From NCBI GenBank assembly GCA_025453395.1, contig JALOQK010000002.1, positions 21,625 through 85,624 of the forward strand: DNA of 64,000 nt, in the 5' to 3' direction. Origin of the DNA: Candidatus Omnitrophota bacterium. GTDB taxonomy: Bacteria > Omnitrophota > Gorgyraeia > Gygaellales > Profunditerraquicolaceae. The translations under genes and the position numbers were made by a program. Shown here piece by piece: positions 2,997 through 61,590 of this stretch. The notes beneath the pieces were generated by a model that saw nothing but the letters and a program-made list of their open reading frames with translations, searched no databases and was not told the origin of the DNA. The first letter of the stretch is position 1; each line of letters starts with the position of its first letter.

Positions 2997-3605
2997 ATGA
3001 GAATAAAAGACTGTAAATCTTTGAGTTTGCTTTTGTTAGGTTTTTTCTTGTTGCCTGCATTGTTAACAGCCCAAGAAGCGCCTCAACGCTCTTTAGAGGC
3101 AATAGAGTTTTTTGCGGGTTACGGCTGGAATCAATTAAAGCCTTTCAAAGCTGGAGAACCAAGAAAAGATTACCGCCAAATCCCTTTATTAGCAGATTTT
3201 GATTTCAATCTTAAGAACTTCACCAAGAAAGTGGGGGTTAATCCTCCCGGTTTACTGCAATTTCAGGTTGAGCCATTTTTTTCTTTTGTTACAAGCCCGG
3301 ATAGAAATATAGAAACCGGCACCTCGTTTTTTATAAAAATCGGGATATTGCCCCAAACTTCCCGTATACAACCTTATATCAAAGCCGGGCCCGGTATGGT
3401 TTATATGACCCAGAATACCGCAGAACAGGGTACGAAATTTAATTTTATTGAAACCGGCGCTGCCGGATTTCATTTTTTCATAAATAAAAACACAGCCTTT
3501 AGCGCGGAATACAGGTTTCGCCATCTCTCCAATGCCGGGATAAAAGAACCTAACGGAGGCATTAATTCCCGTTTTGTCTTAGCCGGCGTAACATACCAAT
3601 ATTAA
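2997..3605 (+). CDS. outer-membrane beta-barrel protein, PagL-like lipid A deacylase candidate
   Basis: Signal peptide LLLLGFFLLPALLTAQEA. C-terminal ..EYRFRHLSNAG.. (H-x-S-N-A resembles the PagL catalytic motif). Ends in an aromatic residue (VTYQY), typical of OM barrels. Confidence 0.45.
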   Translation: MRIKDCKSLSLLLLGFFLLPALLTAQEAPQRSLEAIEFFAGYGWNQLKPFKAGEPRKDYRQIPLLADFDFNLKNFTKKVGVNPPGLLQFQVEPFFSFVTSPDRNIETGTSFFIKIGILPQTSRIQPYIKAGPGMVYMTQNTAEQGTKFNFIETGAAGFHFFINKNTAFSAEYRFRHLSNAGIKEPNGGINSRFVLAGVTYQY

Positions 3606-4588: not shown

Positions 4589-4598
4589 AGATATAATA

Positions 4599-4691
4599 TC
4601 AGCTATCAGCTTTCAGCTAAAAGCGTAAAGCTTAAAGCGAAAAACTAAAACTTAAAGCGAAAAATGAAAAGCAAAAACTAAAAGCGAAAAA
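4599..4691. repeat. heptanucleotide-periodic simple repeat (ATCAGCT / AAAAGCG / TAAAGCT units)
   Basis: Sequence reads atcagct atcagct ttcagct aaaagcg taaagct taaagcg aaaaact .. with strict 7-nt phase. Intergenic between dus and the next gene. The same units recur inside recG. Confidence 0.8.
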
Positions 4692-4697
4692 GGAAGA

Positions 4698-5182: not shown

Positions 5183-7321
5183 ATGGAAAATAATCCGCTT
5201 GAGCAGTCTGTCCAGTATCTAAAAGGGGTCGGCCCGGCACGCCTTAAATTGCTGCAGAAAATAGGGGTTAATTCTTTAGAAGACCTTTTGTATTATTTCC
5301 CCCGCCGCTATCAAGACCGCAGGAATTTTATTCCAATAGCAGCTTTAGAGCAAGGCCAAGTTCAGGCAATTAGAGCTAAGATTATTTCTTGTTATCAGCG
5401 CAGTTCTTTTTACCGCCGCGGGTTTAAGATAACTGAAATCGTTGCCGCAGATAAAAGCGGGAAAATTACCTGTGTCTGGTTTAACCAGCCCTACATTAAA
5501 AATTATTTGAAGATCGGCGAGGAAGCTATTTTCTACGGCAGAGTGGGGAGTTTTGGCAAGAAACTGCAGATGCACTCTCCGGAATTTGAAGTCTTATCTG
5601 TTGGCGAAGATGCGCAAGCAAATAGCGACAGCCTTATGCCGGTGTATTCTTTGCCGGATTCTATCACCCAGAGATATTTCCGGGATCTTATAAAATTAGT
5701 GATAGATGCCTATTTGCCAAAGCTGCATGATTTTATTCCTTATAGTATGCGTCAGCGTAATAATTTGTTAAACCTTGCCAAGGCGCTGGTAAGTATTCAT
5801 TTTCCTGCTGATCAAGAGGCGCGGGCCTTAGCCTATCAACGCTTGGCCTTTGATGAATTCCTGTTTTTCCAAATACCGCTGGCTTTAAGAAAACATCGCA
5901 GGAAAGAAGAACAGGGTATCGCCCATAAAACAGAAGGGGGCTTAGTGGATTGTTTCCTGCGCGGGTTAGGTTTTAAGCTAACTTCTTCGCAGGAGCAGGT
6001 TTTAAAAGAGATCAAGAAAGATATGGCCAGCCCTCAAGTTATGCAGCGGCTTTTACAGGGCGATGTTGGTTCAGGCAAGACCGTGGTAGCTACAGCTTCT
6101 TGCCTAATGGCTGTTCAGGGAGGCTTTCAGGCGGCATTTATGGTGCCTACGGAAATCTTGGCGAGACAGCATTATGAGAAAATAAGCTCTCAGCTTTCAG
6201 CTATCAGCCGTCAGCCTTCAGCTATCAGCCGTCAGCCTTCAGCTATCAGCTTTCAGCTAAAAGCAATAAAAGTGGCTTTACTAACTAGTGCGTTGAATAA
6301 GAAAGAAAAAGAGAAAATATATCAAGGCATAAAAAATGGAGCAATAAATTTGGTGATTGGCACGCACGCTTTACTGCAGCAACAGGTTGAATTTAAGAAT
6401 CTGGGGCTGGTGGTTATTGATGAACAGCATAAATTCGGCGTGGGTCAGCGAGCGTTATTGCCGCAAAAAGGAAAAAGCCCGGATATTCTGATCATGACCG
6501 CCACCCCTATCCCGCGGACTTTAGCAATTACCATTTATGGGGATTTGGATGTTTCTGTTATTTCGGAGTTACCTGCGGGCAAGGGCAAGATTAAGACCAT
6601 GAATTTTTCCGTCGGGCAAGAAAAAGCGGCCTATAGTTTGGCTAAAAAAGAGCTTGAGGCAGGCCGTCAGGCGTATATTATTTATCCGGTTATTGAAGAG
6701 TCTTATGCTTTGGATATGGAGGGCGCCAAGAAAAAATACGCGCAATTAAGTTCCGGAGATTTTAAACAATACCGCTTAGGGCTTATCCATGGCAGGCTTG
6801 ATGACAAACAGCAGAATCAATTGATGCAGGATTTCCGGGATAAGAAATTAGACATTCTTGTTTCTACCACTATTCTGGAAGTCGGGATTGATATCCCCAA
6901 TGCTACCTGTATAATCATTGAGAATGCCGAACGTTTTGGCTTGTCGCAGTTACATCAATTGCGGGGGCGGGTAGGAAGAGGCAAAGATGACGCCTATTGT
7001 TTATTGATTGCCAATACTTCTACTGTTGAAGCCAAGGCGCGCATGGAGGCAATGGTAAATTATAGCGATGGTTTTCATATTTCCGAGGAAGATTTAAGAA
7101 TCCGGGGGCCGGGTGAATTCTTCGGCATGCGCCAGCATGGCCTAAGCCAGCTTAAGATCGCCAATCCTCTGACCCAGATGCAGCTTTTAAAGAAGGCGCG
7201 TGATGAGGCACTGCGTTTGATTAATGACGATGCGGGGCTTGTTGCCAAAGACAATGTCTTGATCAGGCAGCGTTTATTCAAGGCCTTTCCGGAATATGAA
7301 AATTTAATACTCACGGGATAA
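5183..7321 (+). CDS. recG: ATP-dependent DNA helicase RecG
   Basis: Wedge domain, Walker A GDVGSGKT, DEQHKFGV, and QLHQLRGRVGRG helicase motif VI. Carries an in-frame repeat-derived insert at 6181..6262. Confidence 0.9.
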   Translation: MENNPLEQSVQYLKGVGPARLKLLQKIGVNSLEDLLYYFPRRYQDRRNFIPIAALEQGQVQAIRAKIISCYQRSSFYRRGFKITEIVAADKSGKITCVWFNQPYIKNYLKIGEEAIFYGRVGSFGKKLQMHSPEFEVLSVGEDAQANSDSLMPVYSLPDSITQRYFRDLIKLVIDAYLPKLHDFIPYSMRQRNNLLNLAKALVSIHFPADQEARALAYQRLAFDEFLFFQIPLALRKHRRKEEQGIAHKTEGGLVDCFLRGLGFKLTSSQEQVLKEIKKDMASPQVMQRLLQGDVGSGKTVVATASCLMAVQGGFQAAFMVPTEILARQHYEKISSQLSAISRQPSAISRQPSAISFQLKAIKVALLTSALNKKEKEKIYQGIKNGAINLVIGTHALLQQQVEFKNLGLVVIDEQHKFGVGQRALLPQKGKSPDILIMTATPIPRTLAITIYGDLDVSVISELPAGKGKIKTMNFSVGQEKAAYSLAKKELEAGRQAYIIYPVIEESYALDMEGAKKKYAQLSSGDFKQYRLGLIHGRLDDKQQNQLMQDFRDKKLDILVSTTILEVGIDIPNATCIIIENAERFGLSQLHQLRGRVGRGKDDAYCLLIANTSTVEAKARMEAMVNYSDGFHISEEDLRIRGPGEFFGMRQHGLSQLKIANPLTQMQLLKKARDEALRLINDDAGLVAKDNVLIRQRLFKAFPEYENLILTG
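6181..6262 (+). repeat. heptanucleotide repeat array embedded in frame in recG
   Basis: Sequence cagcttt cagctat cagccgt cagcctt cagctat cagccgt cagcctt cagctat cagcttt cagctaa, encoding ..SQLSAISRQPSAISRQPSAISFQLKA.. The 21-nt (3-unit) block is duplicated. The terminal agctatcagctttcagctaaaagc is identical to the intergenic element at 4599. Confidence 0.85.
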
Positions 7322-7324
7322 CAG

Positions 7325-7879
7325 ATGCGTATTACAAGCGGCATTTACAAGAATCGTAAGCTTAAGATGCCTGCAGGTATTCGTCCGACACAGGAGAAAA
7401 CCCGCAAGGCCATATTTGATATTATGGGCGATATATCGGGCTTGAGGTTTTTGGAGCTTTTTGCCGGGTCAGGGGCGGTAGGTTTTGAGGCTTTGTCGCG
7501 GCAAGTTGAAGAGGTGGTCTTAGTGGAAGATAGCCGCGCCTGCCAAAAGGTGATTCAGGAGGCTATCCGGGATTGGAAAATCCCGAATTGTTCGCTTTTG
7601 CCTTTGCCTGTTCCCAAAGCCATAGAAATACTGGTGAAAAATAACGATAGATTTGATATTATCTTTATGGACCCCCCGTATTACCAGGATTGGGCAAAAA
7701 AAATCTTGCAAAGCCTATCCTCTTGTGATATATTAGCGCCCAATGGTTTTGTGGTTGCCCAGACGCACAAAACAGAGAATCTCCCTGATTGTCAGGGAGG
7801 TTTAATTTTGTTTAAGCGCTCTGTTTATGGAGATACGGTTCTTTGGTTCTATAAAAACAAGTTAAATGAGGTTACATAA
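7325..7879 (+). CDS. rsmD: 16S rRNA (guanine966-N2)-methyltransferase RsmD
   Basis: ..KTRKAIFDIMG.. LFAGSGAVGFEALSR .. DPPY motif. Confidence 0.8.
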   Translation: MRITSGIYKNRKLKMPAGIRPTQEKTRKAIFDIMGDISGLRFLELFAGSGAVGFEALSRQVEEVVLVEDSRACQKVIQEAIRDWKIPNCSLLPLPVPKAIEILVKNNDRFDIIFMDPPYYQDWAKKILQSLSSCDILAPNGFVVAQTHKTENLPDCQGGLILFKRSVYGDTVLWFYKNKLNEVT

Positions 7880-7960
7880 GGTTACATGGGGTTAATTGAG
7901 GTTGCCTTTGCAACGTCATGTAACATCATTTAACATCATGCAACTTCAGATAACCTATAT
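7855..7960. repeat. palindromic element built from ~10-bp GGTTACATGA-type units (family B, copy 1)
   Basis: Left arm gttaaatgag gttacataag gttacatggg gttaattgag gttgcc, then its approximate reverse complement tgcaacgtca tgtaacatca tttaacatca tgcaacttca. Confidence 0.75.
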
Positions 7961-11104: not shown

Positions 11105-11139
11105 GCTGATAGCTGATAGCTGATGACTGAAAGCTGATA
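11105..11139. repeat. heptanucleotide repeat (GCTGATA units)
   Basis: gctgata gctgata gctgatg actgaaa gctgata. This is the reverse-complement orientation of the ATCAGCT family. Confidence 0.75.
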
Positions 11140-11141
11140 AT

Positions 11142-12077
11142 ATGGATAAATGCGCATTTTTATTCGCTGGGCAGGGCAGTCAATATATAGGCATGGGCAA
11201 GGACCTTTATGAATCTTTCCCGGCAAGCCGGCAGATCTTTGACCGGGCCGAAGAGGTCTTAGGTTTTGACTTGAAAAGGCGCGTATTTGAAGGGCCGCAG
11301 GAATTGCTGCGCATGACAAGCGTCTCGCAGCCAGCAATTCTTACTGTAAGTTTAGCTTGTTATGAAGCTTTTAAATCATCTGACATCTGTCCTCTGTCCT
11401 CTGTGCAGTATACAGCAGGACTAAGTCTAGGTGAATACACTGCTTTAATAGCAGCAGGCAGTATTTCCTTTAAAGACGGGATTCTTTTGGTGAGAAAAAG
11501 AGGGGAATTAATGGAGGAGGCGGCAACTAAACATCCCGGAAAGATGGCCGCAGTGCTAGATCTTTCTTTGGATGCCTTAAAAGAAATCTGCGCTAAAACG
11601 CATGCTGAAATCGCCAATCTTAATTGCCCGGGACAGGTAGTTATTTCCGGAAAAGCTGAAGCTGTGGACAAGGCCATGGAACTATGTGTCCAGGCGCAAG
11701 CCAAGAGGGTTATTCCTCTTGAAGTAAGCGGCGGTTTTCATTCTTCGCTTATGAAAGAGGCGTCCGTAGAGTTTAGTAAGGTTTTGGATACGGTAGAGAT
11801 ACTCCCGGCTAAGATACCGGTGGTTAGTAATTATACCGCGTCTGTGCAGGCTCAGCCCGGAGAGATCAAGGCTAATCTAGTGGCGCAGATGTATTCTTCG
11901 GTGCGCTGGGAAGAGTCTATGCGGTTTATGATCGCTGAAGGGGTTTCAAAGTTTTACGAATTTGGCCCGGGCAAGGTATTAAAAGGTTTAGCCCGCAAGA
12001 TTGACGCGCAAGCAAATGTGCTAAACATAGAAAAAAGAGATGATGTTATTAACCTTCAAAAGGATGAGGTGAAATAA
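11142..12077 (+). CDS. fabD: malonyl CoA-ACP transacylase
   Basis: FAGQGSQYIGMG and the GLSLGEY active-site serine motif. Confidence 0.9.
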   Translation: MDKCAFLFAGQGSQYIGMGKDLYESFPASRQIFDRAEEVLGFDLKRRVFEGPQELLRMTSVSQPAILTVSLACYEAFKSSDICPLSSVQYTAGLSLGEYTALIAAGSISFKDGILLVRKRGELMEEAATKHPGKMAAVLDLSLDALKEICAKTHAEIANLNCPGQVVISGKAEAVDKAMELCVQAQAKRVIPLEVSGGFHSSLMKEASVEFSKVLDTVEILPAKIPVVSNYTASVQAQPGEIKANLVAQMYSSVRWEESMRFMIAEGVSKFYEFGPGKVLKGLARKIDAQANVLNIEKRDDVINLQKDEVK

Positions 12078-14466: not shown

Positions 14467-15762
14467 ATGGGCTATACAATAGCTGAAAAAATCTTAATGG
14501 CGCACGCCGGAAAAAAGGATATTCATCCGGGTGAGTTTATTGAAGCCAAAGTCGATATCGCTTTAGGCAATGATATTACCGCGCCTTTGGCGATTGAAGA
14601 ATTTAAGAAGACAGGAGTAAAGAAAGTATTCGATAATAAGAAAATAGTTCTGGTGCCGGATCATTTTGCCCCTGCTAAAGATTTAAAAAGCGCCAATCAA
14701 TGCAAAATTCTGGCTAATTTTGCCCAAGAGCAAAAGATCAAGAATTATTTTGAGGTAGGTTGTATGGGCATAGAGCATGCCCTCTTGCCGGAAAAAGGGA
14801 TAGTCGGGCCCGGATATTTGGTGATCGGGGCCGATTCTCATACCTGTACCTATGGGGCCTTAGGCGCTTATGCTACTGGGGTTGGCTCAACGGATTTAGC
14901 GCGCGCTTTCATAGACGGGGAATGCTGGTTTAAAGTTCCGGCATCGGTTAAATTTGTTTATAAAGGAAAATTAAAGAAGTGGGTTGGCGGGAAAGACCTT
15001 ATACTTTTTACTATTGGGCAGATCGGTGTTGATGGGGCCCTGTACAAAGCAATGGAATTTACCGGCCCTGTTATAGATAAGCTTCCCATGGATGATCGTT
15101 TTTCTATGTCAAATATGGCCATAGAAGCCGGAGCCCGGGCAGGGTTGATTAACCCGGACGAGATTACTTTAAGTTATATGGAAGAAAGTCAAAAGTCAAA
15201 AGTCAAAAGTCAAAAGTTCAGAGCAAAAGTTAAAAGCTTAAGATCAGATGATGATGCTGTATATGAGAAAGTTTATGATTGGGATGTGAGTAATTTAGAG
15301 CCGCAGGTCGCCTGTCCGCATTTACCAAGCAACACTAAACCTGTGGGAGAGTTGAGTAATATTACTGTTGACCAGGTAGTCATTGGTTCTTGCACTAACG
15401 GCAGGATTGCTGATTTGCGCACCGCAGGCAAGATTCTAAAGGGCAAGAAAATAAAACCTGGTTTGCGTTTGATTGTTATCCCGGCAACCCAGAAAATCTA
15501 TCTGGAAGCAGTCCAAGAGGGTTTGGCAGAAATATTTGTCAAAGCAGGCGGGGTTTTCTCTACGCCTACCTGCGGCCCGTGTTTAGGCGGACATATGGGT
15601 ATTTTAACTGAAGGCGAAAGGTGCCTGGCCACAACCAATAGAAATTTTATTGGCAGGATGGGGCATCCTAAATCCGAGGTTTATTTGTCAAGCCCCGCGG
15701 TCGCCGCCGCAGCGGCAGTTACAGGAAGGATTACGCATCCCGAAGAAATAAATAAACAATAA
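14467..15762 (+). CDS. leuC: 3-isopropylmalate/homoaconitate-type dehydratase large subunit (short archaeal-type LeuC)
   Basis: [17 protein letters not shown].., aconitase-family Cys ligands (GSCTNGR, CGPCLG). A small-subunit gene follows. Carries an in-frame heptamer repeat insert. Confidence 0.75.
15183..15240 (+). repeat. AAAAGTC heptamer repeat array in frame inside leuC
   Basis: aaagtc aaaagtc aaaagtc aaaagtc aaaagtt cagagca aaagtta aaagctt, encoding ..[18 protein letters not shown].. Confidence 0.8.
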
Positions 15763-15862
15763 CCAATACCCAAATCTGTTTGGTCAATTGGTTATTGATT
15801 ATTGGGTATTGTTTGGTGTTTCCAGATTTGGTGTTTGGTGATTAAATAAACAGGTATAGCTA
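15763..15862. other. structured ~100-bp spacer between leuC and leuD with inverted repeats
   Basis: ccaatacccaaatctg .. cagatttgg and ttgggtattg segments are mutually complementary. This is unusual for a large/small subunit pair, which are normally translationally coupled. Confidence 0.4.
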
Positions 15863-26693: not shown

Positions 26694-27875
26694 ATGAAGT
26701 TAGAGGAAGTATTTCAATCTTACAGCGATTTTATAATGCCTACTTACGCTAAAACCCCGCTTGTCTTTGTCAAGGGCAAGGGCAGTTTTCTTTGGGATAT
26801 CCATAGCAAGAAATATTTGGATTTTTTCCCGGGATGGGGCGTAGGAAGCATGGGCCATTGCCATGCTAAGGTGGTGCAGGCGATAAGGGAGCAGGCCGCG
26901 AAACTTATTTTTGTGCCTAATAATTATTATACCCTGGCGCAGGCAAAGTTAGCAAAAAAACTTGTTAGTTTAGCCTTTCCCTCTAAAGTATTTTTCTGCA
27001 ATTCTGGGGCTGAAGCCAATGAAGCCGCGATAAAGTTTAGCCGTAAGTTCGGCAATGGAAGATATGAGATCATAACCTTTCAGGATTCTTTCCACGGGCG
27101 CACCGCTGGGGCATTGGCTGCCACGGGCCAGAAAAAATATCAAGAAGGTTTTCAGCCGCTTTTATCAGGCTTTAAGCTGGCGCAGTTTAATAATTTAGAT
27201 TCGGTGAAATCTCTGATTAATCCCGATACGGTTGCGATTATGTTGGAGCTTATCCAGGGAGAGGGCGGAGTTAACGTTGCCGGTTTAGATTTTATCAAGG
27301 CCTTAAGGGAAATTTGCGACCAGAATAAGCTTCTTTTGATCGTGGACGAAGTGCAAACTGGGATTGGCAGGACGGGGAAGTTTTTTGCTTATCAGCATTA
27401 TGGGATAATCCCTGATATAATTACTTTAGCCAAGGCCTTAGGCGCAGGTTTGCCGATAGGGGCTATGTTAGTCAAAAAAGAAATTGCTGATATATTAACA
27501 TCCGGAACACACGCTTCTACTTTTGGCGGGGGTGCGGTAGTTTGCGCCTCAAGCCTGGCGGTTTTAAAGGCCATGCGCGATGAAGATATTCTTAGTAATG
27601 TGCGTGATGCAGGGGAATATCTTTTTGAGATGGCTTTTAAGTTAAAGGAAAAATATAATATTATCCAAGATGTCAGAGGCAGGGGATTGATGCTAGGCAT
27701 ACAGCTTAAATGCCCGGGTAAGGATATTGTTGCAAAATGCATGCAGAAGGGGCTTCTTATTAATTGCACGCATGATACAGTATTACGGTTAATGCCGGCC
27801 CTTAATGTTACCAAGAAACAGATAGGCCAGGGGATGAGAATATTAGAAGACGTAATTAAGAAAGCGAAAAGTTAA
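26694..27875 (+). CDS. argD: acetylornithine aminotransferase
   Basis: Class III aminotransferase: DEVQTGIGRTG, PLP-Lys in TLAKALGAG. Sits inside the arg gene string. Confidence 0.85.
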   Translation: MKLEEVFQSYSDFIMPTYAKTPLVFVKGKGSFLWDIHSKKYLDFFPGWGVGSMGHCHAKVVQAIREQAAKLIFVPNNYYTLAQAKLAKKLVSLAFPSKVFFCNSGAEANEAAIKFSRKFGNGRYEIITFQDSFHGRTAGALAATGQKKYQEGFQPLLSGFKLAQFNNLDSVKSLINPDTVAIMLELIQGEGGVNVAGLDFIKALREICDQNKLLLIVDEVQTGIGRTGKFFAYQHYGIIPDIITLAKALGAGLPIGAMLVKKEIADILTSGTHASTFGGGAVVCASSLAVLKAMRDEDILSNVRDAGEYLFEMAFKLKEKYNIIQDVRGRGLMLGIQLKCPGKDIVAKCMQKGLLINCTHDTVLRLMPALNVTKKQIGQGMRILEDVIKKAKS

Positions 27876-27900
27876 AAGCGTAAAGCGAAAAGCGAAAAAA
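27871..27900. repeat. AAAAGCG heptamer repeat
   Basis: aaaagcg taaagcg aaaagcg aaaaaat. Confidence 0.7.
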
Positions 27901-27923
27901 TAAAACAAATACGAGGCAAAGAC

Positions 27924-28844
27924 ATGAAAAAAGATTTAATTTCCATAAAAGATTTATCATCTGCAGAGATAAATCAGCTTTTTGATTTGACTGCGCAATT
28001 AAAAAGGAACAAGAATAAATTCTCTCGGGTTTTAAGCGGAAAGACTTTGGCCCTGATTTTCCAAAAGCCCTCAAACCGCACGCGGGTTTCTTTTGAAGTG
28101 GGGATGTATCAGCTGGGAGGAAATTCCATATATTTATCCCCGGGAGAGATAAACCTTGGGGTCAGGGAATCTATCCCGGATGCGGCTAAAACTCTTTCCC
28201 GTTATGTGGATGGGATTGTTTTAAGGACTTTTGCGCATAAAAACGTGATTGAATTGGCTAAATATGCGGATATCCCTGTAATAAACGGTTTATCGGATTT
28301 TTCTCATCCCTGCCAGGCGCTGGCGGATATCTATACGGTTGTTGAGAAATTAGAAAATGTGAAGGGAAAAACCTTAGCTTATGTGGGCGACGGAAACAAT
28401 GTTTGTAATTCGCTTTTATTTATTTGCGCCAAGACCGGCATGAACATTAATGTTGCTGCGCCTGTTGGCTATAAGCCTGATAGAGCGGTGGTGGAGCAAG
28501 CAGAAAATATCGCCCTGCCCAATAAAAGCAAAGTTAGCATTTTTAGCGATCCCTTAAAGGCTGTTAAGGGCTCGGATGTTATTTATACCGATGTTTGGAC
28601 CAGCATGGGGCAGGAAAAAGAGGCCTTAAACAGGCTCAAGGCTTTTAAAGGCTTTCAGATTAATCAGCGGCTTTTGGCGCATGCCAAGAAGGGTGTCCTT
28701 GTTATGCATTGCCTGCCCGCGCACAGAGGCGAGGAAATTACCGGAGAAGTTATGGACAGCAAAAATTCAGTAGTTTTTGATCAGGCGGAAAACCGCATGC
28801 ACGTGCAGAAAGCAGTGTTGATTAAACTGTTAAAACAGCTGTAA
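27924..28844 (+). CDS. argF: ornithine carbamoyltransferase
   Basis: STRTR carbamoyl-phosphate motif and the HCLPAHRGEE motif. Confidence 0.85.
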   Translation: MKKDLISIKDLSSAEINQLFDLTAQLKRNKNKFSRVLSGKTLALIFQKPSNRTRVSFEVGMYQLGGNSIYLSPGEINLGVRESIPDAAKTLSRYVDGIVLRTFAHKNVIELAKYADIPVINGLSDFSHPCQALADIYTVVEKLENVKGKTLAYVGDGNNVCNSLLFICAKTGMNINVAAPVGYKPDRAVVEQAENIALPNKSKVSIFSDPLKAVKGSDVIYTDVWTSMGQEKEALNRLKAFKGFQINQRLLAHAKKGVLVMHCLPAHRGEEITGEVMDSKNSVVFDQAENRMHVQKAVLIKLLKQL

Positions 28845-28892
28845 GCTGTAAGCTATAAGCTGTAAGCTGAAGACTGATAGCTGACAGCTGGA
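28836..28892. repeat. GTAAGCT / GATAGCT heptamer repeat
   Basis: gtaagct gtaagct ataagct gtaagct gaagact gatagct gacagct. Overlaps the argF stop. Confidence 0.75.
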
Positions 28893-30084: not shown

Positions 30085-30200
30085 AAAATGGGTGAGGTTG
30101 TATAAGGTTACATGAGGTTAAATGATGTTACATGAGGTTGCAAAAAGCTTTAAAGCAACTTCATGTAACCTTCGGTAACTTCATGCAACTTTAATTAACC
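30085..30200. repeat. family B palindromic element (copy 2)
   Basis: aggttacatg aggttaaatg atgttacatg aggttgcaaaaagc ttt aaagcaactt catgtaacct tcggtaactt catgcaactt. Confidence 0.75.
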
Positions 30201-31578: not shown

Positions 31579-32856
31579 ATGCATTATTTCCAATATAAAA
31601 ATAACCGCCTTTTTTGCGAAGACGCTGATATCCAGGAGCTGGCTGTTAAACACGGCACTCCGCTGTATCTGTACAGCTATAAGACTTTAGTCGACCACTT
31701 TGTGAAATTAACAGATGCCTTCAGTGAAATTGACGCGCTTATTTGTTATTCGGTGAAAGCAAATTCAAACTTAAGCATTCTAAAGGCGCTTGTCAAGAAA
31801 GGCGCAGGGCTTGATATAGTTTCAGGAGGAGAATTGTTCCGCGCGCTTCGTGCCGGCTGTCCCCCTGAAAGGATCGTCTATGCATCGGTGGGCAAAACCG
31901 CTCAGGAGATAAAACAGGCTTTACAGAAAGGTATTTTATTCTTTAATGTGGAATCTATCCCGGAGCTTGAGAATATTAACCGCATAGCAGGTAATTTAAA
32001 TAAAACTGCCCGGGTAGCTCTGCGTATCAATCCCGACGTTGAAGCCAAGACCCATAAATACATTACTACCGGAAAACTTACCAATAAATTCGGTATTGAC
32101 CTTGAAAGCGCGCGCAGGATATTCGGCAGGTCAGCTGAATTTCCTAATCTGCGCATTTGCGGTATTCACATCCACATCGGCTCTCAAATCACTCAAAGCG
32201 CTCCGTTTGTGGCGGCGATAAGGAAAATAGCAGTGTTTATCGATTCCTTGAAGAAAGACGGCATTTGTCTGCAGTATTTGAACATTGGAGGGGGTTTAGG
32301 CATTGTTTATAATAAAGAAACTCCGCAGACAGCCGCTATATACGCTAGCAAGGTTATGGGTTTGCTTAAGAAGACAGGTTTGAAGATTATTCTGGAGCCG
32401 GGAAGGTTTATCGTCGGTAATAGCGGGATATTATTGGCAAAGGTTTTGTATGTCAAAAAAACATTTAAGAAGAATTTTATTATTGTGGATGCGGCAATGA
32501 ATGACTTGATAAGGCCGGCCCTTTATGAAGCGTATCACGAAATCCTGCCGTTGGTAAGATTTCAAGGTGGAAAGCCAAAAGCCAAAAGTCAAAAGTTTGA
32601 TGTGGTCGGCCCTATTTGCGAGAGCGGGGATTATTTTGCCAAAGGCCGCCTATTGCCACAAATTAAAGAGGGCGATTATTTGGCGATTATGAGCGCCGGC
32701 GCCTATGGTTTTAGCATGTCCAGCAATTATAATTCCCGCTGCCGCGCCCAAGAAGTAATGGTAGTCGGCAAAAAAGATTTTGTGATTAGAAATAGAGAGA
32801 TTCGCGAGGATCTAATACGTAACGAGAAAATCCCGCAGTTCTTAAGGCGAAAATGA
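31579..32856 (+). CDS. lysA: diaminopimelate decarboxylase
   Basis: Fold-III PLP decarboxylase (..YSVKAN.., ..HIHIGSQ.., ..GPICESGD..). Carries an in-frame heptamer insert at 32571..32598 (KPKAKSQK). Confidence 0.85.
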   Translation: MHYFQYKNNRLFCEDADIQELAVKHGTPLYLYSYKTLVDHFVKLTDAFSEIDALICYSVKANSNLSILKALVKKGAGLDIVSGGELFRALRAGCPPERIVYASVGKTAQEIKQALQKGILFFNVESIPELENINRIAGNLNKTARVALRINPDVEAKTHKYITTGKLTNKFGIDLESARRIFGRSAEFPNLRICGIHIHIGSQITQSAPFVAAIRKIAVFIDSLKKDGICLQYLNIGGGLGIVYNKETPQTAAIYASKVMGLLKKTGLKIILEPGRFIVGNSGILLAKVLYVKKTFKKNFIIVDAAMNDLIRPALYEAYHEILPLVRFQGGKPKAKSQKFDVVGPICESGDYFAKGRLLPQIKEGDYLAIMSAGAYGFSMSSNYNSRCRAQEVMVVGKKDFVIRNREIREDLIRNEKIPQFLRRK

Positions 32857-33689
32857 GAAAAATAAAATTTACAAAAATGGTCGCATCTGGTAATGATTTT
32901 GTCGTTGTTGATAAGCTTAAAGCTTATAGCTTAAAGCTTAAAGCTTTTTCTAAATCTATTTGTGACAGAAAATATGGAGCTGGGGCTGATGGGCTGCTAA
33001 TTTTGTCACAGCTTGTATTATCTCATGGCAAGCGTTCCGCTTCCTGCGGTATGCGTATTTTTAATGCCGATGGCTCTGAAGCCCAGATGTGCGGCAATGG
33101 GGCTAGGTGCGCGGCGTTGTATTTCAGCTGTCAGCTGTCAGCTGTCAGCTGTCAGCAAAAGATAAAAATAGAAACCAAAGCAGGGGATATACATTCTTTA
33201 GTAAACGGTAATAATGTAAAGATTAAATTAACTGATCCCAAAGGTTTAAGATTAAACATTCCAATTAAGCTTAATGGCAGAACGCTTAAGGTTAATTTTA
33301 TTAATACCGGGGTCCCGCATGCGGTTATTTTTGTGGAGGGCCTTGATAAAATTGACGTGGATAATTTAGGCAGAGCTATTCGTTATCATCAGGTTTTCAA
33401 GCCGCAAGGCGCGAATGTAAATTTTGTGGAAGTTTTGAATAATACTTCTATCAGGATAAGGACTTATGAAAGAGGCGTAGAGGGCGAAACTTTAGCCTGC
33501 GGTACCGGCTCTGTTGCTTCGGGTTTGCTTACCGCTTACAACTTACCGCTTACAGCTAATATTATAAATGTCCACACCCGGGGCGGCCAGATATTAAAAG
33601 TTGATTTTCAAAAATCAGGCGATGGTTTCAAGGATGTCTGGTTAGAGGGCAAAGCAAAAATTGTATACCAAGGAGAATACTATGTTTAG
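32853..33689 (+). CDS. dapF: diaminopimelate epimerase
   Basis: ..ASGNDFVVVD.. N-terminus, GNGARC catalytic Cys motif, second Cys in ..LACGTGS... Contains two internal heptamer repeat arrays. Confidence 0.85.
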   Translation: MRKIKFTKMVASGNDFVVVDKLKAYSLKLKAFSKSICDRKYGAGADGLLILSQLVLSHGKRSASCGMRIFNADGSEAQMCGNGARCAALYFSCQLSAVSCQQKIKIETKAGDIHSLVNGNNVKIKLTDPKGLRLNIPIKLNGRTLKVNFINTGVPHAVIFVEGLDKIDVDNLGRAIRYHQVFKPQGANVNFVEVLNNTSIRIRTYERGVEGETLACGTGSVASGLLTAYNLPLTANIINVHTRGGQILKVDFQKSGDGFKDVWLEGKAKIVYQGEYYV

Positions 33690-34557
33690 AGGATCAATTG
33701 TGGCTATGGTCACGCCATTTAAAGACGAAAAAATTGACGAGAAGAGATTCAGAAGTTTAATTGATTTTCAGATTGAAAACGGCACTTCCGGCATCGTCCC
33801 CTGCGGCACTACAGGTGAATCCGCGACATTGTCGGTTAAAGAGCACCAGCGTTTGATTGAATTGGCCATAGAGCAGGTGAATAAGCGCGTGCCGGTAATT
33901 GCCGGTACAGGTTCCAACTCTACGGATGAGGCGATCACTTTAACGAAGCACGCTTTTCATGCGGGCGCAGATGCTTCTTTGCAGGTAGCTCCGTATTATA
34001 ACCGCCCTACCCAGACCGGGTTATACCAGCATTTTAAGAAAATAGCCCAAGCAGTAGATATCCCGATCATTGTTTATAATATTGCTTCCCGCACAGGGGT
34101 TAATATCGAGCCGGAAACTATCGCGAAGCTGGCCTCTGAATGTAAGAATATTGTAGGAGTGAAAGAGGCATCCGGAAATCTTGAGCAGATGTCTCGTATC
34201 TTAAGTCTTACTCCAGCAGGATTTATTCTTCTTTCAGGAGATGATGCGCTCACACTTCCTGTTTTAAGCATCGCAGGAGCAGGGGTAATTTCTGTGGTGG
34301 CTAATATTGTTCCAAAAGATGTTTCCAGGCTGGTAAATGTCTTTGAAGATGGCGACATCCAAAAGGCGCAAGATATGCATTACAAACTTTTTCCGCTTGT
34401 CAAAGCTATGTTTATTGAAACAAATCCTATACCGGTTAAAACCGCGATGGGCCTGTTAAAGATGTGTTCACCGGAACTTCGTCTTCCGATGTCAGAAATG
34501 CTTCCTGACAATGTAGAGAAACTTAAGAAGGCGTTGAAAAATTACGGGTTATTATAA
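33682..34557 (+). CDS. dapA: 4-hydroxy-tetrahydrodipicolinate synthase
   Basis: MFRGSIVAMVTPF .. GTTGES; Schiff-base Lys in GVKEASGN. Start chosen at MFRG (aggaga ribosome-binding site 6 nt upstream). Confidence 0.85.
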   Translation: MFRGSIVAMVTPFKDEKIDEKRFRSLIDFQIENGTSGIVPCGTTGESATLSVKEHQRLIELAIEQVNKRVPVIAGTGSNSTDEAITLTKHAFHAGADASLQVAPYYNRPTQTGLYQHFKKIAQAVDIPIIVYNIASRTGVNIEPETIAKLASECKNIVGVKEASGNLEQMSRILSLTPAGFILLSGDDALTLPVLSIAGAGVISVVANIVPKDVSRLVNVFEDGDIQKAQDMHYKLFPLVKAMFIETNPIPVKTAMGLLKMCSPELRLPMSEMLPDNVEKLKKALKNYGLL

Positions 34558-34660
34558 AGGAAGTTAAATAAGGTTACATGAAGTTACCGTAGGTTAAATT
34601 AGGTTGCTTAAAAGCTTTTTGCAACTTCATTTAACATCATTTAACCTCAATTAACCTTAA
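34558..34660. repeat. family B palindromic element (copy 3)
   Basis: aagttaaata aggttacatg aagttaccgt aggttaaatt aggttgcttaaaagctttttgcaa cttcatttaa catcatttaa cctcaattaa. Confidence 0.75.
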
Positions 34661-38650: not shown

Positions 38651-38820
38651 TAGATGTTAAATGAAGTTACATGAAGTTAAATAAGGTTAAATGAAGTTGC
38701 TCGAAGAATGTTACATGAAGTTGCATGAGGTTACATAAAGTTACATGACGTTGCAAAATAATTTCTTTTATGCAACCTCACGTAACATCATTTAACCTCA
38801 TGCAACCTCAATTAACTTCA
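38651..38820. repeat. family B palindromic element (copy 4, longest)
   Basis: At least eight direct units (gttaaatgaa gttacatgaa gttaaataag gttaaatgaa gttgctcgaa .. gttacatgaa gttgcatgag gttacataaa gttacatgac gttgcaaaataatttcttttatgcaa), then inverted units cctcacgtaa catcatttaa cctcatgcaa cctcaattaa. Confidence 0.8.
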
Positions 38821-39170: not shown

Positions 39171-41996
39171 ATGACTTCCAATATCATCATTCGCGGCGCC
39201 AAGGAACATAACTTAAAAAACATTTCTTTAGAGCTTCCGCGCAATAAATTGATTGTGGTTACCGGTTTATCCGGCTCAGGTAAATCAAGCCTTGTGTTTG
39301 ATACTATCTATGCCGAAGGCCAGCGCCGCTATGTGGAAAGCCTTTCCAGCTACGCCCGGCAGTTTTTAGGTCAGCTTCAGAAACCGGATGTGGAGTATAT
39401 TGAAGGCCTTTCTCCGGCAATTGCTATTGAACAAAGGACTGCTGGCGGTAACCCCCGTTCCACGGTAGCTACCCAAACCGAAATCTACGATTATTTGCGC
39501 CTTCTTTTTGCGCGTATCGGAGAGGTATCCTGTTATCAATGCGGCAGGTTTGTGAAGCGCCAGAGCGCCCAAGAGATCGTCCAGCAGGTTATGGAATTAG
39601 GCGAAGGCGCAAGCATTCAGATTTTAGCAAAAGTAATAAGCGGTAGAAAAGGGCAATATCGGCAGGAGTTTTCAAATCTTAAGAAGGCAGGTTTTATCCG
39701 CGCGCGCGTCGATGGTAAAATATATGAGTTGGATCAAAAAATAAATTTAGATAAATATAAAGCGCATAACATAGAAGTTCTGGTAGACAGGCTGACCATT
39801 GCGCCGGCTGTAAAGCCGCGGCTTACTGATTCCATAGAAACCGCGTTAAAGGCAGGCCAAGGCATTGTGGTTGTTGCCGCCAAGCTTTCTAGCGGTAAAG
39901 AAGCCGAATCAGTATATAGCCAGCACTATGCCTGCACAAACTGCGGCATAAGTTATACGGAAGTCCAGCCGCGCATTTTTTCTTTTAATTCTCCTTATGG
40001 GGCCTGCCCGGAATGTAACGGCTTGGGTACAAAATTTGAGTTTGACCTGGATTTGATCATCCCGGAGAAAGATAAATCTATCAATCAGGGCGCGCTTGCC
40101 GTCTGGAGGAGAGGCGGACGAGGCTATATTATGTATTACCGCTGGCTTTTGCGCGAGTTATCGCGCGAACTGGGGTTTAGTCTGGACACGCCTTTTAATA
40201 AGCTTAAGAAAGACACCCAGAAAGCGATCCTTTATGGTACGGATATCGAAATCGGCAGTAAGCCTTTTGAGGGGGTTATCCCGCACTTAGAAAGGCTTTT
40301 TAGGGACACCGACAGCGATTATTTAAAGCATGAAATATCCAAATTTATGTCTACGCTTGCCTGTCCGGGCTGTAATGGCGCGCGCCTTAAGAAAGAAAGC
40401 CTCAGCGTTAAGATAAAGGGCAAGAATATTTGGGAAGTAGCTCAGATGCCGATAAATAAGGCAAAGGAATTTTTCTCTTCCCTTAATTTAAGCGCCAAAG
40501 ATAAACTTATTGCCGCAGAATGCTTGAAACAGATAAATCAGCGTTTGCAGTTTTGTATTGATGTGGGGCTTGATTATTTAACTTTAGAGAGAAAAAGTTC
40601 CACTCTTTCCGGAGGAGAGGCGCAGCGAATCCGGCTTGCCACTCAAGTGGGTTCGCGCTTGGTAGGAGTTTTGTATGTTTTAGACGAGCCCAGTATCGGC
40701 CTGCACCAGCGGGATAATATTAAGCTTCTTTCAACATTGGAATCTTTGAGGGATTTAGGCAATACGGTATTAGTGGTGGAGCATGATGAATATACCATAA
40801 GAGCCGCTGACTATGTTGTGGATTTAGGCCCGGGCGCGGGGCTTCATGGAGGGCATGTAGTTTTTGCCGGTACCAATAAACAATTGCTGGAGAATAAACA
40901 GTGCTTAACCGCTAAATATTTACGCCGCGAATTGGATATTCCCATTCCAGAAAGCCGCCGCACTTTTGATCCTAATAGGGCCATTGAAATTAAAGGCGCC
41001 CGGCAGCATAACTTAAAGAATATTGATGTCAAATTTCCCATAGGCGCTTTTATTGCTGTGACAGGCGTTTCCGGTTCGGGGAAATCAACGCTTATAGAGG
41101 ATATACTGTATCGGGGGTTGAATCAGAAGATCTACAGTTCCCGCGAGAAACCCGGAGCGCACGATGAACTATTAGGGGCAGACCTTATAGACAAGGTTAT
41201 TGTCGTGGATCAGTCGCCTATTGGAAGAACGCCCCGTTCCAACCCCGCTACTTACACAGCAGTGTTTAGCCATATCCGTGATTTATTCAGCCGGCTTCCG
41301 GAAGCTAAGATGCGCGGATATAAGCCGGGAAGGTTTTCTTTTAATGTTAAAAGCGGGCGCTGTCAGGCATGCATGGGAGATGGAATCAAGAAAATAGAGA
41401 TGCATTTCTTGCCGGATGTCTATGTGAAATGCGATATCTGCAAGGGCAGGCGTTTTAATGATGCTACTTTAGAGGTTAAATATAAAGGAAAATCCATTGC
41501 TGATGTCTTGGAGATGACCGTCGAAGAAGCGGTTGTATTGTTTGAGAATATCCCGGTAATTAAAAATACCCTGTCATATCTGTATGATGTGGGTTTGGAA
41601 TATGTTCAATTGGGCCAGTCCTCCACTACTCTTTCCGGAGGCGAGGCGCAAAGAATTAAGCTTGCCAGTGAATTAAGCAAGCGTTCAACCGGGAAGACCT
41701 TATATATACTTGATGAGCCGACCACGGGCTTACATTTCGCGGATGTGCATAAGCTTATTACTGTGCTGCAGCGGCTGGTGGATAAAGGCAATACGGTTAT
41801 TGTTATTGAACATAATTTGGAAGTAGTAAAATGCGCGGATTATATTATTGATTTAGGGCCTGAAGGCGGCGATAAGGGGGGAGAGCTTGTTTTTTGCGGA
41901 ACCCCGGAAGATTTAGCAGGGTCAAAGAAATCCTATACGGGAGAGTTTTTAAGAAAGATATTGAAGGCGGGAAAAGGAAGTGATATAGTGAAATAA
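39171..41996 (+). CDS. uvrA: excinuclease ABC subunit A
   Basis: Two ABC ATPase modules ([20 protein letters not shown]), zinc fingers, LSGGEAQR signatures. 941 aa. Confidence 0.95.
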
Positions 41997-42000
41997 GTAA

Positions 42001-42030
42001 AAAGTCAAAAGTAAAAAGTCAAAAGTAAGA
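42001..42030. repeat. AAAAGTC heptamer repeat (intergenic)
   Basis: aaagtc aaaagta aaaagtc aaaagta agaag. Confidence 0.7.
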
Positions 42031-42044
42031 AGATTAAATTAAAA

Positions 42045-56680: not shown

Positions 56681-56900
56681 AAAGCGCAAAACTAAAAGCG
56701 CAAAGCGTAAATCGATAATCCAAAATTCAAAATTTTTAATTTTACGCTATAGTTTTACCTGCCTGCCGGCAAGGCAGGCGTTTTTCGCTTTACATTTTAC
56801 GCTATATAAGACAAAAATCGTCTAACTTTTATGTATTTGGCTGATAGCTGAAAGCTGATAGCTGATAGCTGAAAGCTGATATAATTTGACTGAACTTATG
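56681..56900. repeat. family A heptad-periodic palindromic element plus GCTGATA repeats (copy 1)
   Basis: aaaagcg caaaact aaaagcg caaagcg taaatcg ataatcc aaaattc aaaattt ttaattt tacgcta tag .., inner hairpin ctgcctgccggcaaggcaggcg, then gctgata gctgaaa gctgata gctgata gctgaaa gctgata. Confidence 0.8.
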
Positions 56901-56958: not shown

Positions 56959-57031
56959 GGGGCTGTAGCTCAGTTGGGAGAGCGCCTCGTTCGCAACGAG
57001 GAGGCCAGCGGTTCGATCCCGCTCAGCTCCA
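56959..57031 (+). tRNA. tRNA-Ala (anticodon CGC)
   Basis: 73-nt cloverleaf with 7-bp acceptor stem including G3:U70, D-loop agttggga, anticodon loop ttCGCaa, T-loop ttcgatc. CCA is not encoded. Confidence 0.9.
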
Positions 57032-60724: not shown

Positions 60725-60860
60725 TTCAAAACTTAAAATTTTAAATTTTACGCTATAGTTTTACGCTTTGCGCTTTAAGTTTTTAGTTTTTAAGGTTTTG
60801 AATTTTTAATTATGGCTTTTAGCTCTTAGTTTTTAGCTTACAGCTTACAAGGAGGCTGAT
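60725..60860. repeat. family A element (copy 3) with core in both orientations
   Basis: ataattcaaaacttaaaattttaaattttacgctatag .. ttttgaatttttaattatgg (reverse complement of core) .. tagctta cagctta. Confidence 0.75.
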
Positions 60861-61520: not shown

Positions 61521-61590
61521 GACGGTAGCGAAAAGTGTAAAGCGAAAAATGTAAAAGTATAATTTAAAATTAAAAACAGAAAGAGAGAAA
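61521..61590. repeat. family A element fragment (copy 4)
   Basis: agcgaaaagtgtaaagcgaaaaatgtaaaagtataatttaaaattaaaaac. Confidence 0.6.

Follow-up and report, generated by a model that had tools for sequence, protein, structure and literature searches.

A heptanucleotide repeat array read in frame in recG of an Omnitrophota genome, probably as a tolerated passenger

A 64,000-nucleotide stretch of contig JALOQK010000002.1 (the window), from a 'Candidatus Omnitrophica bacterium' metagenome-assembled genome (MAG), carries a tandem array of seven-nucleotide units at 6185-6264, inside the coding sequence of the repair helicase gene recG. We consider it likely that this array is a heptanucleotide microsatellite resembling the short tandemly repeated repetitive (STRR) sequences of cyanobacteria, and that it is read in frame as a tolerated passenger and not used as a phase-variation device. 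Arrays of other heptamers are found at the same site in many Omnitrophota, the reading frame is kept in all of them that were compared, and equivalent arrays occur in other housekeeping genes of the window.

Results

A complete RecG contains the array

The open reading frame (ORF) was identified as RecG by alignment with the Thermotoga maritima enzyme (1gm5) over residues 6-678 (E=5.6e-163). The Pfam domains RecG_wedge, DEAD, Helicase_C and RecG_dom3_C were assigned to the protein, the N-terminal wedge (OB) domain (PF17191 RecG_wedge) being located at residues 10-174 with E=2.2e-34. Motif Ia (PTEILAxQH) and two RecA-like helicase domains are present, as expected of a member of the family, and the sequences GSGKT (I), DEQH (II), TATPIPRT (III), QLRGRVGRG (VI) and RGPGEFFG (TRG region) are invariant in 63 orthologues. 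The nearest orthologues are ~63% identical to the window protein. A first-pass annotation of this DNA had described recG as an intact gene of 712 codons with all its helicase motifs and with consecutive 7-nt units read in frame; both descriptions were borne out (Table 1).

The units of the array are, in order, AGCTCTC, AGCTTTC, AGCTATC, AGCCGTC, AGCCTTC, AGCTATC, AGCCGTC, AGCCTTC, AGCTATC, AGCTTTC and AGCTAAA, followed by AGC. Arrays were detected with Tandem Repeats Finder (TRF), which reported this one with a period of 7 (6185-6258, 10.6 copies, score 78) and also with a period of 21 (6190-6257, 3.2 copies, 93% matches, score 115). Neighbouring heptamers are never identical, with 1-3 differences between them, and no exact period-7 tract exceeds 13 nt. 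The inner block AGCTATC AGCCGTC AGCCTTC occurs twice in tandem, as had been annotated, and is followed by one more AGCTATC. The 55-nt tract of exact period 21 appears to mark the latest frame-preserving duplication. The outer AGCTNTC units resemble the common 61-aa form of the relatives described below.

The annotation had further pointed to 24 nt at the edge of the array (AGCTATCAGCTTTCAGCTAAAAGC) that recur in an intergenic array upstream. This 24-mer is exact at 4601 and 6241, had 0 matches in 100 shuffles, and is part of a 26-nt identity; a third copy with 2 mismatches is found on the minus strand at 56840-56863. Folding of the recG array as DNA was not significant against shuffles (z=-1.5). 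In an Rfam scan of the window no family matched the array, and the sole match was a tRNA gene (RF00005, 67.7 bits) at 56959-57031, ~80 nt downstream of a GCTGATA array.

The array is an insertion relative to the RecG family

When the window protein was compared with both solved RecG structures, T. maritima (1gm5) and E. coli (9wm0), a 19-residue gap opened exactly at the array. The site lies after the helix following motif Ia (PTEILARQH) and before the next beta-strand (VALL), where the Thermotoga and E. coli enzymes have an 11-residue connection. At the DNA level, relatives of recG were taken from ~160 matches listed, ~20 of them from Omnitrophota and the remainder serving as outgroup controls. 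Segment length was measured in residues from motif Ia (PT..L..QH) to the IGTHA motif at 28 Omnitrophota and 121 non-Omnitrophota recG loci, among the matches listed; all counts over these loci share this scope. The segment is 75 aa long in the window, against a mode of 56 aa (89 of the 121 non-Omnitrophota loci), and the comparison with unrelated lineages proposed in the first-pass annotation thus speaks for an insertion.

An AlphaFold model of the window RecG was built on 63 orthologues (mean predicted local distance difference test score, pLDDT, 78). Its best Foldseek match is 1gm5_A (E=1.2e-51). The model contains a helix at residues 324-343, coil with pLDDT below 50 at 344-358 and a strand at 364-367, so that the predicted low-confidence coil falls where a loop had been proposed. 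In the model the native helix is extended by the first unit, and the ~20 residues that follow would form a low-confidence coil or disordered loop between motifs Ia and Ib. From this model we infer that the array encodes a floppy extra surface loop, which for the protein would be a near-neutral passenger. A function at the protein level appears unlikely because the peptide is unconserved even between near-identical strains and because the short 54-aa form, found in ten orthologues, lacks an insert.

Arrays of other heptamers occupy the same site in relatives

At the 28 Omnitrophota loci the segment is mainly 54, 61, 68 or 75 aa long, in steps of 7 aa that correspond to 21 nt or three heptamers; the window has the longest. 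The classes among 117 Omnitrophota RecG orthologues compared at the protein level were 54 aa (10 proteins), 58 (10), 61 (53), 62 (15), 68 (4) and 75 (3). Most of the arrays add one 7-aa unit to the shortest form, giving the 61-aa version, and the window allele adds three. The short 54-aa forms retain only the proto-repeat ATCAGNTNNCAGNTAAAG. Two orthologues (L003, L006/L085) have, at the corresponding position, sequences close to the 3' end of the window array, CAGCTAAAAG, which encodes QLK. Together with the exact period-21 tract, these lengths agree with the earlier proposal that the array changes in steps of three units. The reading frame is kept through the site in 28/28 loci, and gains or losses of one or two units, which would shift the frame, were seen in none of them.

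When 120 orthologues were aligned, a hypervariable stretch was apparent between QHYEKI and IKVGLLTSS; it usually contains a 7-aa unit repeated ~1.5 times, with 8-aa units in some lineages. The peptide units are lineage-specific (SSQLSAL-SSQ, RYQVSGI-RYQ, KSQIPNP-KSQ, SCQLSVV-SCQ, GSWFMVH-GSWFMV). In 31/117 orthologues three or more of 7 residues recur 7 aa further on, compared with 0/1200 control windows elsewhere in the proteins. Since the encoded peptide differs completely between lineages and the 7-nt periodicity stays, the array is a feature of the nucleotide level. An array at the recG site is thus old, or recurrent, within an Omnitrophota clade, and the window array is not a fresh insertion of an intergenic element. 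The first-pass view of a repeat element inserted into a surface loop is accordingly kept for the insertion relative to the RecG family, for its origin in the genome's own heptamer family and for the low-confidence coil, and is given up for a recent private event, arrays being present at the same site in many Omnitrophota.

One related contig, L154 (ERZ1026800 NODE_10838, coverage 2.4), has its 3' end exactly at the first array bases (..ERQSYERI, then AG). The break may be due to population heterogeneity at the array, or simply to low coverage. The RecG of L154 has a degenerate Walker A region (LQLDSASGKTFVAD).

Equivalent arrays are present in other housekeeping genes

Arrays read in frame are also found in fabD, leuC, lysA and dapF of the window (Table 1), and recG is thus not singled out. 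These arrays add only 0-4 residues relative to solved homologues and mostly overwrite variable surface segments. The peptide of the perfect dapF array, SCQLSAVSCQ, is similar to those that relatives have at the recG site. L161, L162 and L165 served for a comparison of the fabD and leuC sites. At the fabD site the units are CATCTGT/CCTCTGT in the window, GGCTCAA in L161, CGTGGTT plus a hairpin in L162 and CCGCTAT in L165, and the leuC site likewise carries arrays with other units in the relatives. An in-frame CTACCTA/CTACCTG array is found in rsmD of L166, L167 (rsmD 3498-4163 in L167; array in alignment columns 3230-3265) and L084 (3084-3119); the rsmD product (Cons_hypoth95) of L166/L167 has 221 aa, compared with 178-184 aa in the window, L161, L162 and L165.

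Units are shared within a genome

Strict arrays with periods of 4-12 nt were counted separately, with shuffled controls. The window contains 10 such arrays at period 7 and two of 10-mers; none was found in the shuffles at period 7, and none in the window for periods 4-6, 8, 9, 11 and 12. The density of TRF period-7 arrays per 10 kb is 3.3 in the window, 2.8 at 26 Omnitrophota loci and 0.64 at 140 other bacterial recG loci, among the matches listed. With ~92% of the window coding, 20/28 TRF period-7 rows are intergenic or overlap gene ends.

Sharing of units between arrays was scored on the TRF consensus units of ten genomes, allowing at most 1 mismatch in any rotation or on either strand. Nine of the 26 other window arrays lie within 1 mismatch of the recG unit, for example those at 4597, 11105, 28837, 33124 and 56840. 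A unit is shared by 14.8% of array pairs within a genome and by 4.2% of pairs between genomes, a value reached in 0/2000 label permutations, and sharing within a genome is still 13.7% without neighbours closer than 300 nt. In L161 a GTTCA family occupies recG, two spacers and leuC, and spacer arrays near recG match its unit in three lineages: the window, L081 and L161/L162. At the level of unit sequences, this comparison shows that each genome has its own preferred units and that the recG array uses the AGCTNTC unit of this genome. Units must be copied or homogenised between loci. Units free of stop codons in all frames were found in 6/8 coding arrays and 8/15 intergenic ones, a difference in the expected direction with numbers too small for a claim.

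Arrays turn over between close strains

Pairs of RecG that are 94-99% identical outside the array site can have unrelated sequences at the site. L162 and L164 share 96.8% nucleotide identity over 2.7 kb, with flanks identical up to the array. The recG site of L162 is (GGTTCAT)5 and that of L164 is (AGCTGTC)3, a 30-nt double mini-hairpin and one AGCTGTC; a downstream spacer array of the GTTCA family is present in L162 and not in L164. The double mini-hairpin of L164 (1382-1411, recG of P0013) reads CCCGCCGCAGGCGGG TCCGCCTCCGGCGGA and encodes PAAGGSASGG. L166 and L167 are 99.0% identical over 3.6 kb, and the site of L166, with ~60 nt of flank, is the allele of L084, which is 85% identical overall. 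Homologous recombination therefore moves alleles of the recG site between lineages. Recombination is in this way documented directly, and from the shared units we infer ectopic copying between arrays.

A GC-rich hairpin of ~20 nt, CCTGCCTGCCGGCAGGCAGG, is associated with the arrays. When copies with up to 3 edits were counted among the matches listed, 12 were found in 0.40 Mb of Omnitrophota and 7 in 2.19 Mb of other bacteria, that is, ~9 times denser. The hairpin is common to Omnitrophota genomes whose RecG proteins are only ~60% identical, and most copies sit within heptamer arrays. Clean in-frame insertions of 21 nt place it in the recG array of L161, where comparison with L162 defines the insertion CCTGCCTGCCGGCAGGCAGGG, and in the fabD array of L162; it encodes 'ACRQAG'-type peptides in the RecG orthologues P0012, P0082, P0093, P0104 and P0054. 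Like REP and SDR elements, CCTGCCTGCCGGCAGGCAGG is a conserved dispersed palindrome that is present or absent between close strains. The window recG array has no hairpin, and the CCTGCCTGCCGGCAGGCAGG copies of the window lie in spacers.

A model in which heptamer arrays are accumulated 7-bp target-site footprints of the hairpin was rejected: the hairpin of L161 was inserted cleanly, adding 21 nt, and left the array at its L162 length of 39 nt. Nor does L002 support target-site duplication, since there the short form is recovered exactly once the 21 nt are taken out.

Four non-Omnitrophota groundwater or sediment contigs (L118, L125, L132 and L148) contain hairpins, such as CCTGCCTACCGGCAGGCAGG, that almost match the Omnitrophota one. 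Their presence in unrelated uncultured bacteria hints at a wider distribution or at horizontal spread.

Table 1. Position and basis of the arrays and related features. Coordinates refer to the window unless a locus is named.
Feature	Position	Strand	Basis
recG ORF, 712 aa, intact	5183..7321	+	1gm5 match, Pfam, motifs I, Ia, II, III, VI, TRG
In-frame array in recG, 11 AGCNNNC-type heptamers + AGC, residues 335-361 = SSQLSAISRQPSAISRQPSAISFQLKA	6185..6264	+	sequence, TRF
Exact period-21 tract, 55 nt, 2.6 copies of CAGCTATCAGCCGTCAGCCTT	6196..6250	+	exact-period scan
26-nt identity, recG array and intergenic array	6239-6264 = 4599-4624	+	exact comparison
Intergenic array filling the dus-like/batD-like spacer; starts TCAGCTATCAGCTTTCAGCTAAAAGC as in recG, decays to A-rich AAAGCGT, AAAACTA	4597..4695	+	TRF
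Intergenic (GCTGATA)x5 between fabH and fabD, same family as recG array	11105..11139	-	TRF
fabD in-frame array, just before GLSLGEY active-site motif	11377..11404	+	strict-array scan
(AAAGTCA)x7.6, in frame, leuC/hacA-like aconitase-family large subunit	15185..15236	+	TRF
AGCTGTA/AGCTGAn array overlapping 3' end of ORF 27924-28844, supplies stop codon	28837..28890	+	TRF
(AAAGCCA), in frame, lysA (diaminopimelate decarboxylase)	32571..32596	+	TRF
(AAGCTTA), in frame, dapF; point changes remove TAA of perfect unit	32913..32946	+	TRF
Perfect (TCAGCTG)x4.7, in frame, dapF, encodes SCQLSAVSCQ	33124..33156	+	TRF
(GCTTACA), in frame, dapF	33527..33557	+	TRF
Intergenic array, AGCTATC/AGCTTTC family in opposite orientation; unit contains TGA so oriented	56840..56881	-	TRF
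CCTGCCTGCCGGCAGGCAGG copies	56756-78, 14428-47 (degenerate); L161 3135-57; L162 11253-75; L002 2253-74; L001 12907-27, 20021-42; L081 2605-27		
recG-site array, L081 and L083: (CAGTTGT)x4-5, perfect			
recG-site array, L082: (AAGGTCAC)x4			
recG-site array, L086: AAAGTCA units			
recG-site array, L004: CAGCTGT/CAGCTAT (= AGCTGTC/AGCTATC)			
recG-site array, L162: (GGTTCAT)x5			
recG-site array, L003: TATCAGC TATCAGC TTTAAGC GGTAAGC TAAAAG; resembles intergenic array of the window			

Discussion

In the reading that we favour, a tolerated microsatellite in frame in recG, the array would change in length by replication slippage or unequal exchange. Since 7 is not divisible by 3, selection for a working RecG would let through only three-unit changes (21 nt). 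The window allele would have arisen from the common 61-aa form by at least 2 gains of 21 nt, the last of which is still a perfect duplication. Array content would turn over rapidly from strain to strain through homologous recombination with diverged alleles, and probably also through copying from one array of a genome to another; the 26 nt shared with the array 1.6 kb upstream are consistent with such copying.

Several points weigh against this reading. Slippage is deduced from comparisons between species and was not observed, since the RecG protein cluster of the window has one member on one contig; the Omnitrophota alleles compared are consensus assemblies of different species and not reads of one population. 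Slippage in steps of 21 nt alone cannot make all heptamers identical, nor can it exchange one unit for another in strains of 97-99% identity. A further process must act, be it ectopic copying, recombination or another, and only recombination has been directly seen. The neutrality of the loop is argued from the absence of peptide conservation and from a low-confidence model. The RNA of the recG array folds somewhat better than shuffles (z=-2.9, a weak effect) through a ladder of AGCU self-pairs, and the persistence of an array at one site across the clade could reflect selection at the DNA or RNA level.

Point mutation and 21-nt slippage in situ were considered as the sole process and rejected, as they cannot yield the identical codon phases of (CAGTTGT)x5 or the strain-level swap of units.

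Among known systems the closest relatives of the window arrays seem, by analogy, to be the cyanobacterial STRR heptamers. These were reportedly described by Mazel et al. in 1990 in heterocystous cyanobacteria, and Vioque is said to have found in 1997 that they occur inside the RNase P RNA gene. Like them, the Omnitrophota arrays consist of tandem 7-nt units of a few families dispersed at many loci of one genome, mostly intergenic and tolerated within a functional gene where the structure allows it; in the window, tandem 7-nt arrays, recurring unit families and a predominantly intergenic location were all found. Unlike them, they belong to a non-cyanobacterial phylum and use AGCTNTC, AAAGCGN, AAAGTCA and other units in place of the canonical STRR1-3. 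They also lie in protein-coding sequence, where three frames are read and length changes in 21-nt steps, with lineage-specific units at the same sites of several housekeeping proteins. Three Calothrix heptanucleotides are mentioned by Rehm et al. 2015 (PMC4692102), who described intergenic GGGAATC / GGGGAYT arrays of Xanthomonas and Nostoc; a passage of the same paper cites Mrazek et al. 2007 for an over-representation of heptameric simple sequence repeats (SSRs) in prokaryotes. The Xanthomonas and Nostoc arrays are similar to those of Omnitrophota in the prominence of period 7, in extensive variation of length and sequence between close relatives, for which polymerase slippage was proposed there, and in inverted arrangements. 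They are, however, G-rich, G-quadruplex-prone and intergenic, whereas the Omnitrophota arrays are not G-rich and about a quarter to a third of them lie inside genes.

The Borg elements also have pervasive, fast-evolving tandem repeats in intergenic and coding positions, the coding ones adding probably disordered segments, as far as the available part of their description goes. Inside Borg reading frames the nucleotide unit is said to be divisible by 3. The recG unit is 7 nt long, unlike these, and its 7-aa peptide repeat is a by-product of three units restoring the frame. Borg repeats within ORFs are perfect amino-acid tandem repeats, according to an excerpt of the report (PMC9879509).

The ~20-nt hairpin recalls other elements, namely the cyanobacterial SDR elements (Elhai et al. 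2008, in the passage of PMC4390886 that cites it) and REP/REPIN elements (PMC3116915). The likeness, limited for SDR to that passage, lies in a conserved palindrome (a GC hairpin of 20-21 nt) that is present or absent in near-identical strains and inserts into another repeat. It concerns the arrays of relatives and the spacers of the window, not the window recG array; no transposase has been linked to the hairpin, the window proteins being unscreened for HUH or other transposases. According to excerpts of Touzain et al. 2010 (PMC2884548), much of the strain diversity within a species consists of short segments, for which illegitimate and homeologous recombination are named as explanations. Unlike the segments in those excerpts, the Omnitrophota segment is always a heptamer array at a fixed site.

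A bolder proposal, tentative and in our view rather less probable than its contrary, is that Omnitrophota carry a self-propagating micro-repeat system. Arrays of heptamers, sometimes of octamers or decamers, often nucleated round the ~20-nt GC hairpin, would be rewritten by a copying process at fixed permissive sites (spacers, RecG, FabD, LeuC). If so, genome-specific unit families and protein loops hypervariable at strain level would follow, and the window recG array would be one product.

It is unlikely that a dedicated system (a REP/RAYT-like nuclease or a templated copying enzyme, for example) actively propagates the arrays and writes them into fixed permissive sites, often with a GC hairpin in the middle of the array. 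Genome-specific unit families, with 26 nt common to the recG array and its neighbour, would be expected from it, as would the match of the recG unit to nearby spacer arrays in the window, L081 and L161/L162 and the replacement of whole arrays in near-identical strains (L162/L164). The conserved hairpin CCTGCCTGCCGGCAGGCAGG, with its roughly ninefold higher density and its clean 21-nt insertions in L161 recG and L162 fabD, points the same way. At least one strain-level replacement is nevertheless explained by ordinary homologous recombination, and families specific to a genome could arise without such a system, through gene conversion between arrays together with a mutational bias. The sample comprises ~0.4 Mb from ~20 genomes, and no candidate enzyme was found, none having been looked for.

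Selection of the loop as a flexible linker or interaction surface that tunes RecG activity is improbable. Most of the 117 Omnitrophota orthologues do retain an insert at the site, the inserts are in frame, free of stops and modelled as coil on the surface of the helicase domain, and Borg tandem repeats that create disordered regions are thought, in an excerpt of PMC9879509, to be selected. The peptides, however, are unrelated between lineages (SSQLSAL, RYQVSGI, KSQIPNP, SWFMVHG, HQVTRSPG), even at 97-99% strain identity, the 54-aa form does without an insert in ten orthologues, and unrelated enzymes carry arrays equally.

The first-pass annotation had suggested a contingency or mutator switch, in which slippage by one or two heptamers reversibly frameshifts recG and gives rise to subpopulations defective in recombination repair. 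Heptanucleotide repeats are known to control the phase-variable SSR locus hmw1A of Haemophilus influenzae (PMC8262952, PMC12721329), and the recG array shares with contingency loci a unit that is not a multiple of 3, here in codons 335-361, whose copy number could change expression; a gain or loss of one unit would truncate RecG after motif Ia. Some relatives have the better slippage substrates (CAGTTGT)x4-5 or (GGTTCAT)x5, both perfect, and the end of the low-coverage contig L154 at the array start could be read as population heterogeneity. Contingency tracts are, however, long and perfect with alleles that differ by single units, whereas the recG arrays have imperfect units, three-unit steps and only ON alleles, in housekeeping genes. 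Long uninterrupted runs of identical units are lacking in the window array: adjacent units differ, the exact period-7 tract stops at 13 nt, and the 55-nt tract of period 21 favours in-frame change. No OFF allele or single-unit difference was seen at the 28 listed loci, all of them in frame, with main classes 7 aa or multiples of it apart. Equivalent or better slippage substrates occur in fabD, leuC, lysA and dapF, biosynthetic genes in which on/off switching would be harmful, and a literature search found no contingency locus that uses 4-11 imperfect 7-mers. Such a switch is consequently unsupported and appears very improbable.

Creation of the array or its copy number by mis-assembly is scarcely credible: the source is a MAG, the 26-nt repeat common to other loci can confuse assemblers and contig L154 breaks at the site, but the 80-nt array and the 26-nt tract are shorter than usual reads and k-mers, the ORF is in frame, and the same site carries arrays in assemblies made independently from many samples by many pipelines.

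Taken alone, the recG insert of a tolerated microsatellite is a curiosity, a repair helicase tolerating 21 extra residues from DNA repeats; the phenomenon that surrounds it deserves a genome-wide census. A limited literature search found no publication on Omnitrophota repeats, which is not proof of novelty. What seems new in Omnitrophota is the coding location, the 21-nt quanta, the orthologous housekeeping sites with lineage-specific units, the genome-specific families and the association with a conserved hairpin. Dense arrays at the same permissive sites make a natural map of insertion-tolerant loops in conserved proteins, and a strain-typing marker for uncultured Omnitrophota. They also provide a tractable case for the homogenisation of dispersed short tandem repeats, a question standing for cyanobacterial STRRs since 1990. 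There is a caution for practice as well: arrays of this kind can disrupt assemblies and gene calls and can pass for phase-variation switches.

Other observations on the window and its relatives

Arrays at 28837-28869, 41995-42032 and 15751-15773 overlap the 3' ends of ORFs and supply the stop codon, so that a change in copy number would alter the protein C-termini. In many spacers, A-rich heptamer arrays (AAAGCGA, AAAACTA, AAGTAAA) lie directly upstream of start codons and reach the Shine-Dalgarno region, as at 4620-4695, 27861-27905, 41995-42070 and 61527-61575; these may act as unstructured translation leaders.

Intergenic arrays of 10-mers (GTTACATGAG-like) are located at 7861-7954, 30093-30199, 34555-34657 and 38656-38820, each followed by the reverse-complement array. 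Such a pair makes a long periodic hairpin in a spacer, for example between rsmD and coaD. Heptamer arrays are likewise paired with their inverse at 15751-15840 and 60681-60849 of the window, as well as in the spacer between recG and rsmD of L161-L163 (TAGTTCA... / ...TGAACTA).

In the batD region upstream of recG, a hairpin element of ~55-60 nt, (A)CCCCGTTAGAAAT...ATTTCTAACGGGG, is inserted at different places in or near batD (alignment columns 100-200 and 500-600) in L165, L166 and L167, strains of 92-99% identity. One insertion brings the predicted protein from 175 to 185 aa, and the element looks like a miniature inverted-repeat transposable element tolerated in coding sequence.

The strand bias of the window (1-64000) is extreme, the plus strand holding 63/64 non-overlapping ORFs of 100 aa or more. 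Every 2-kb bin has a positive GC skew, so that the cumulative skew rises monotonically.

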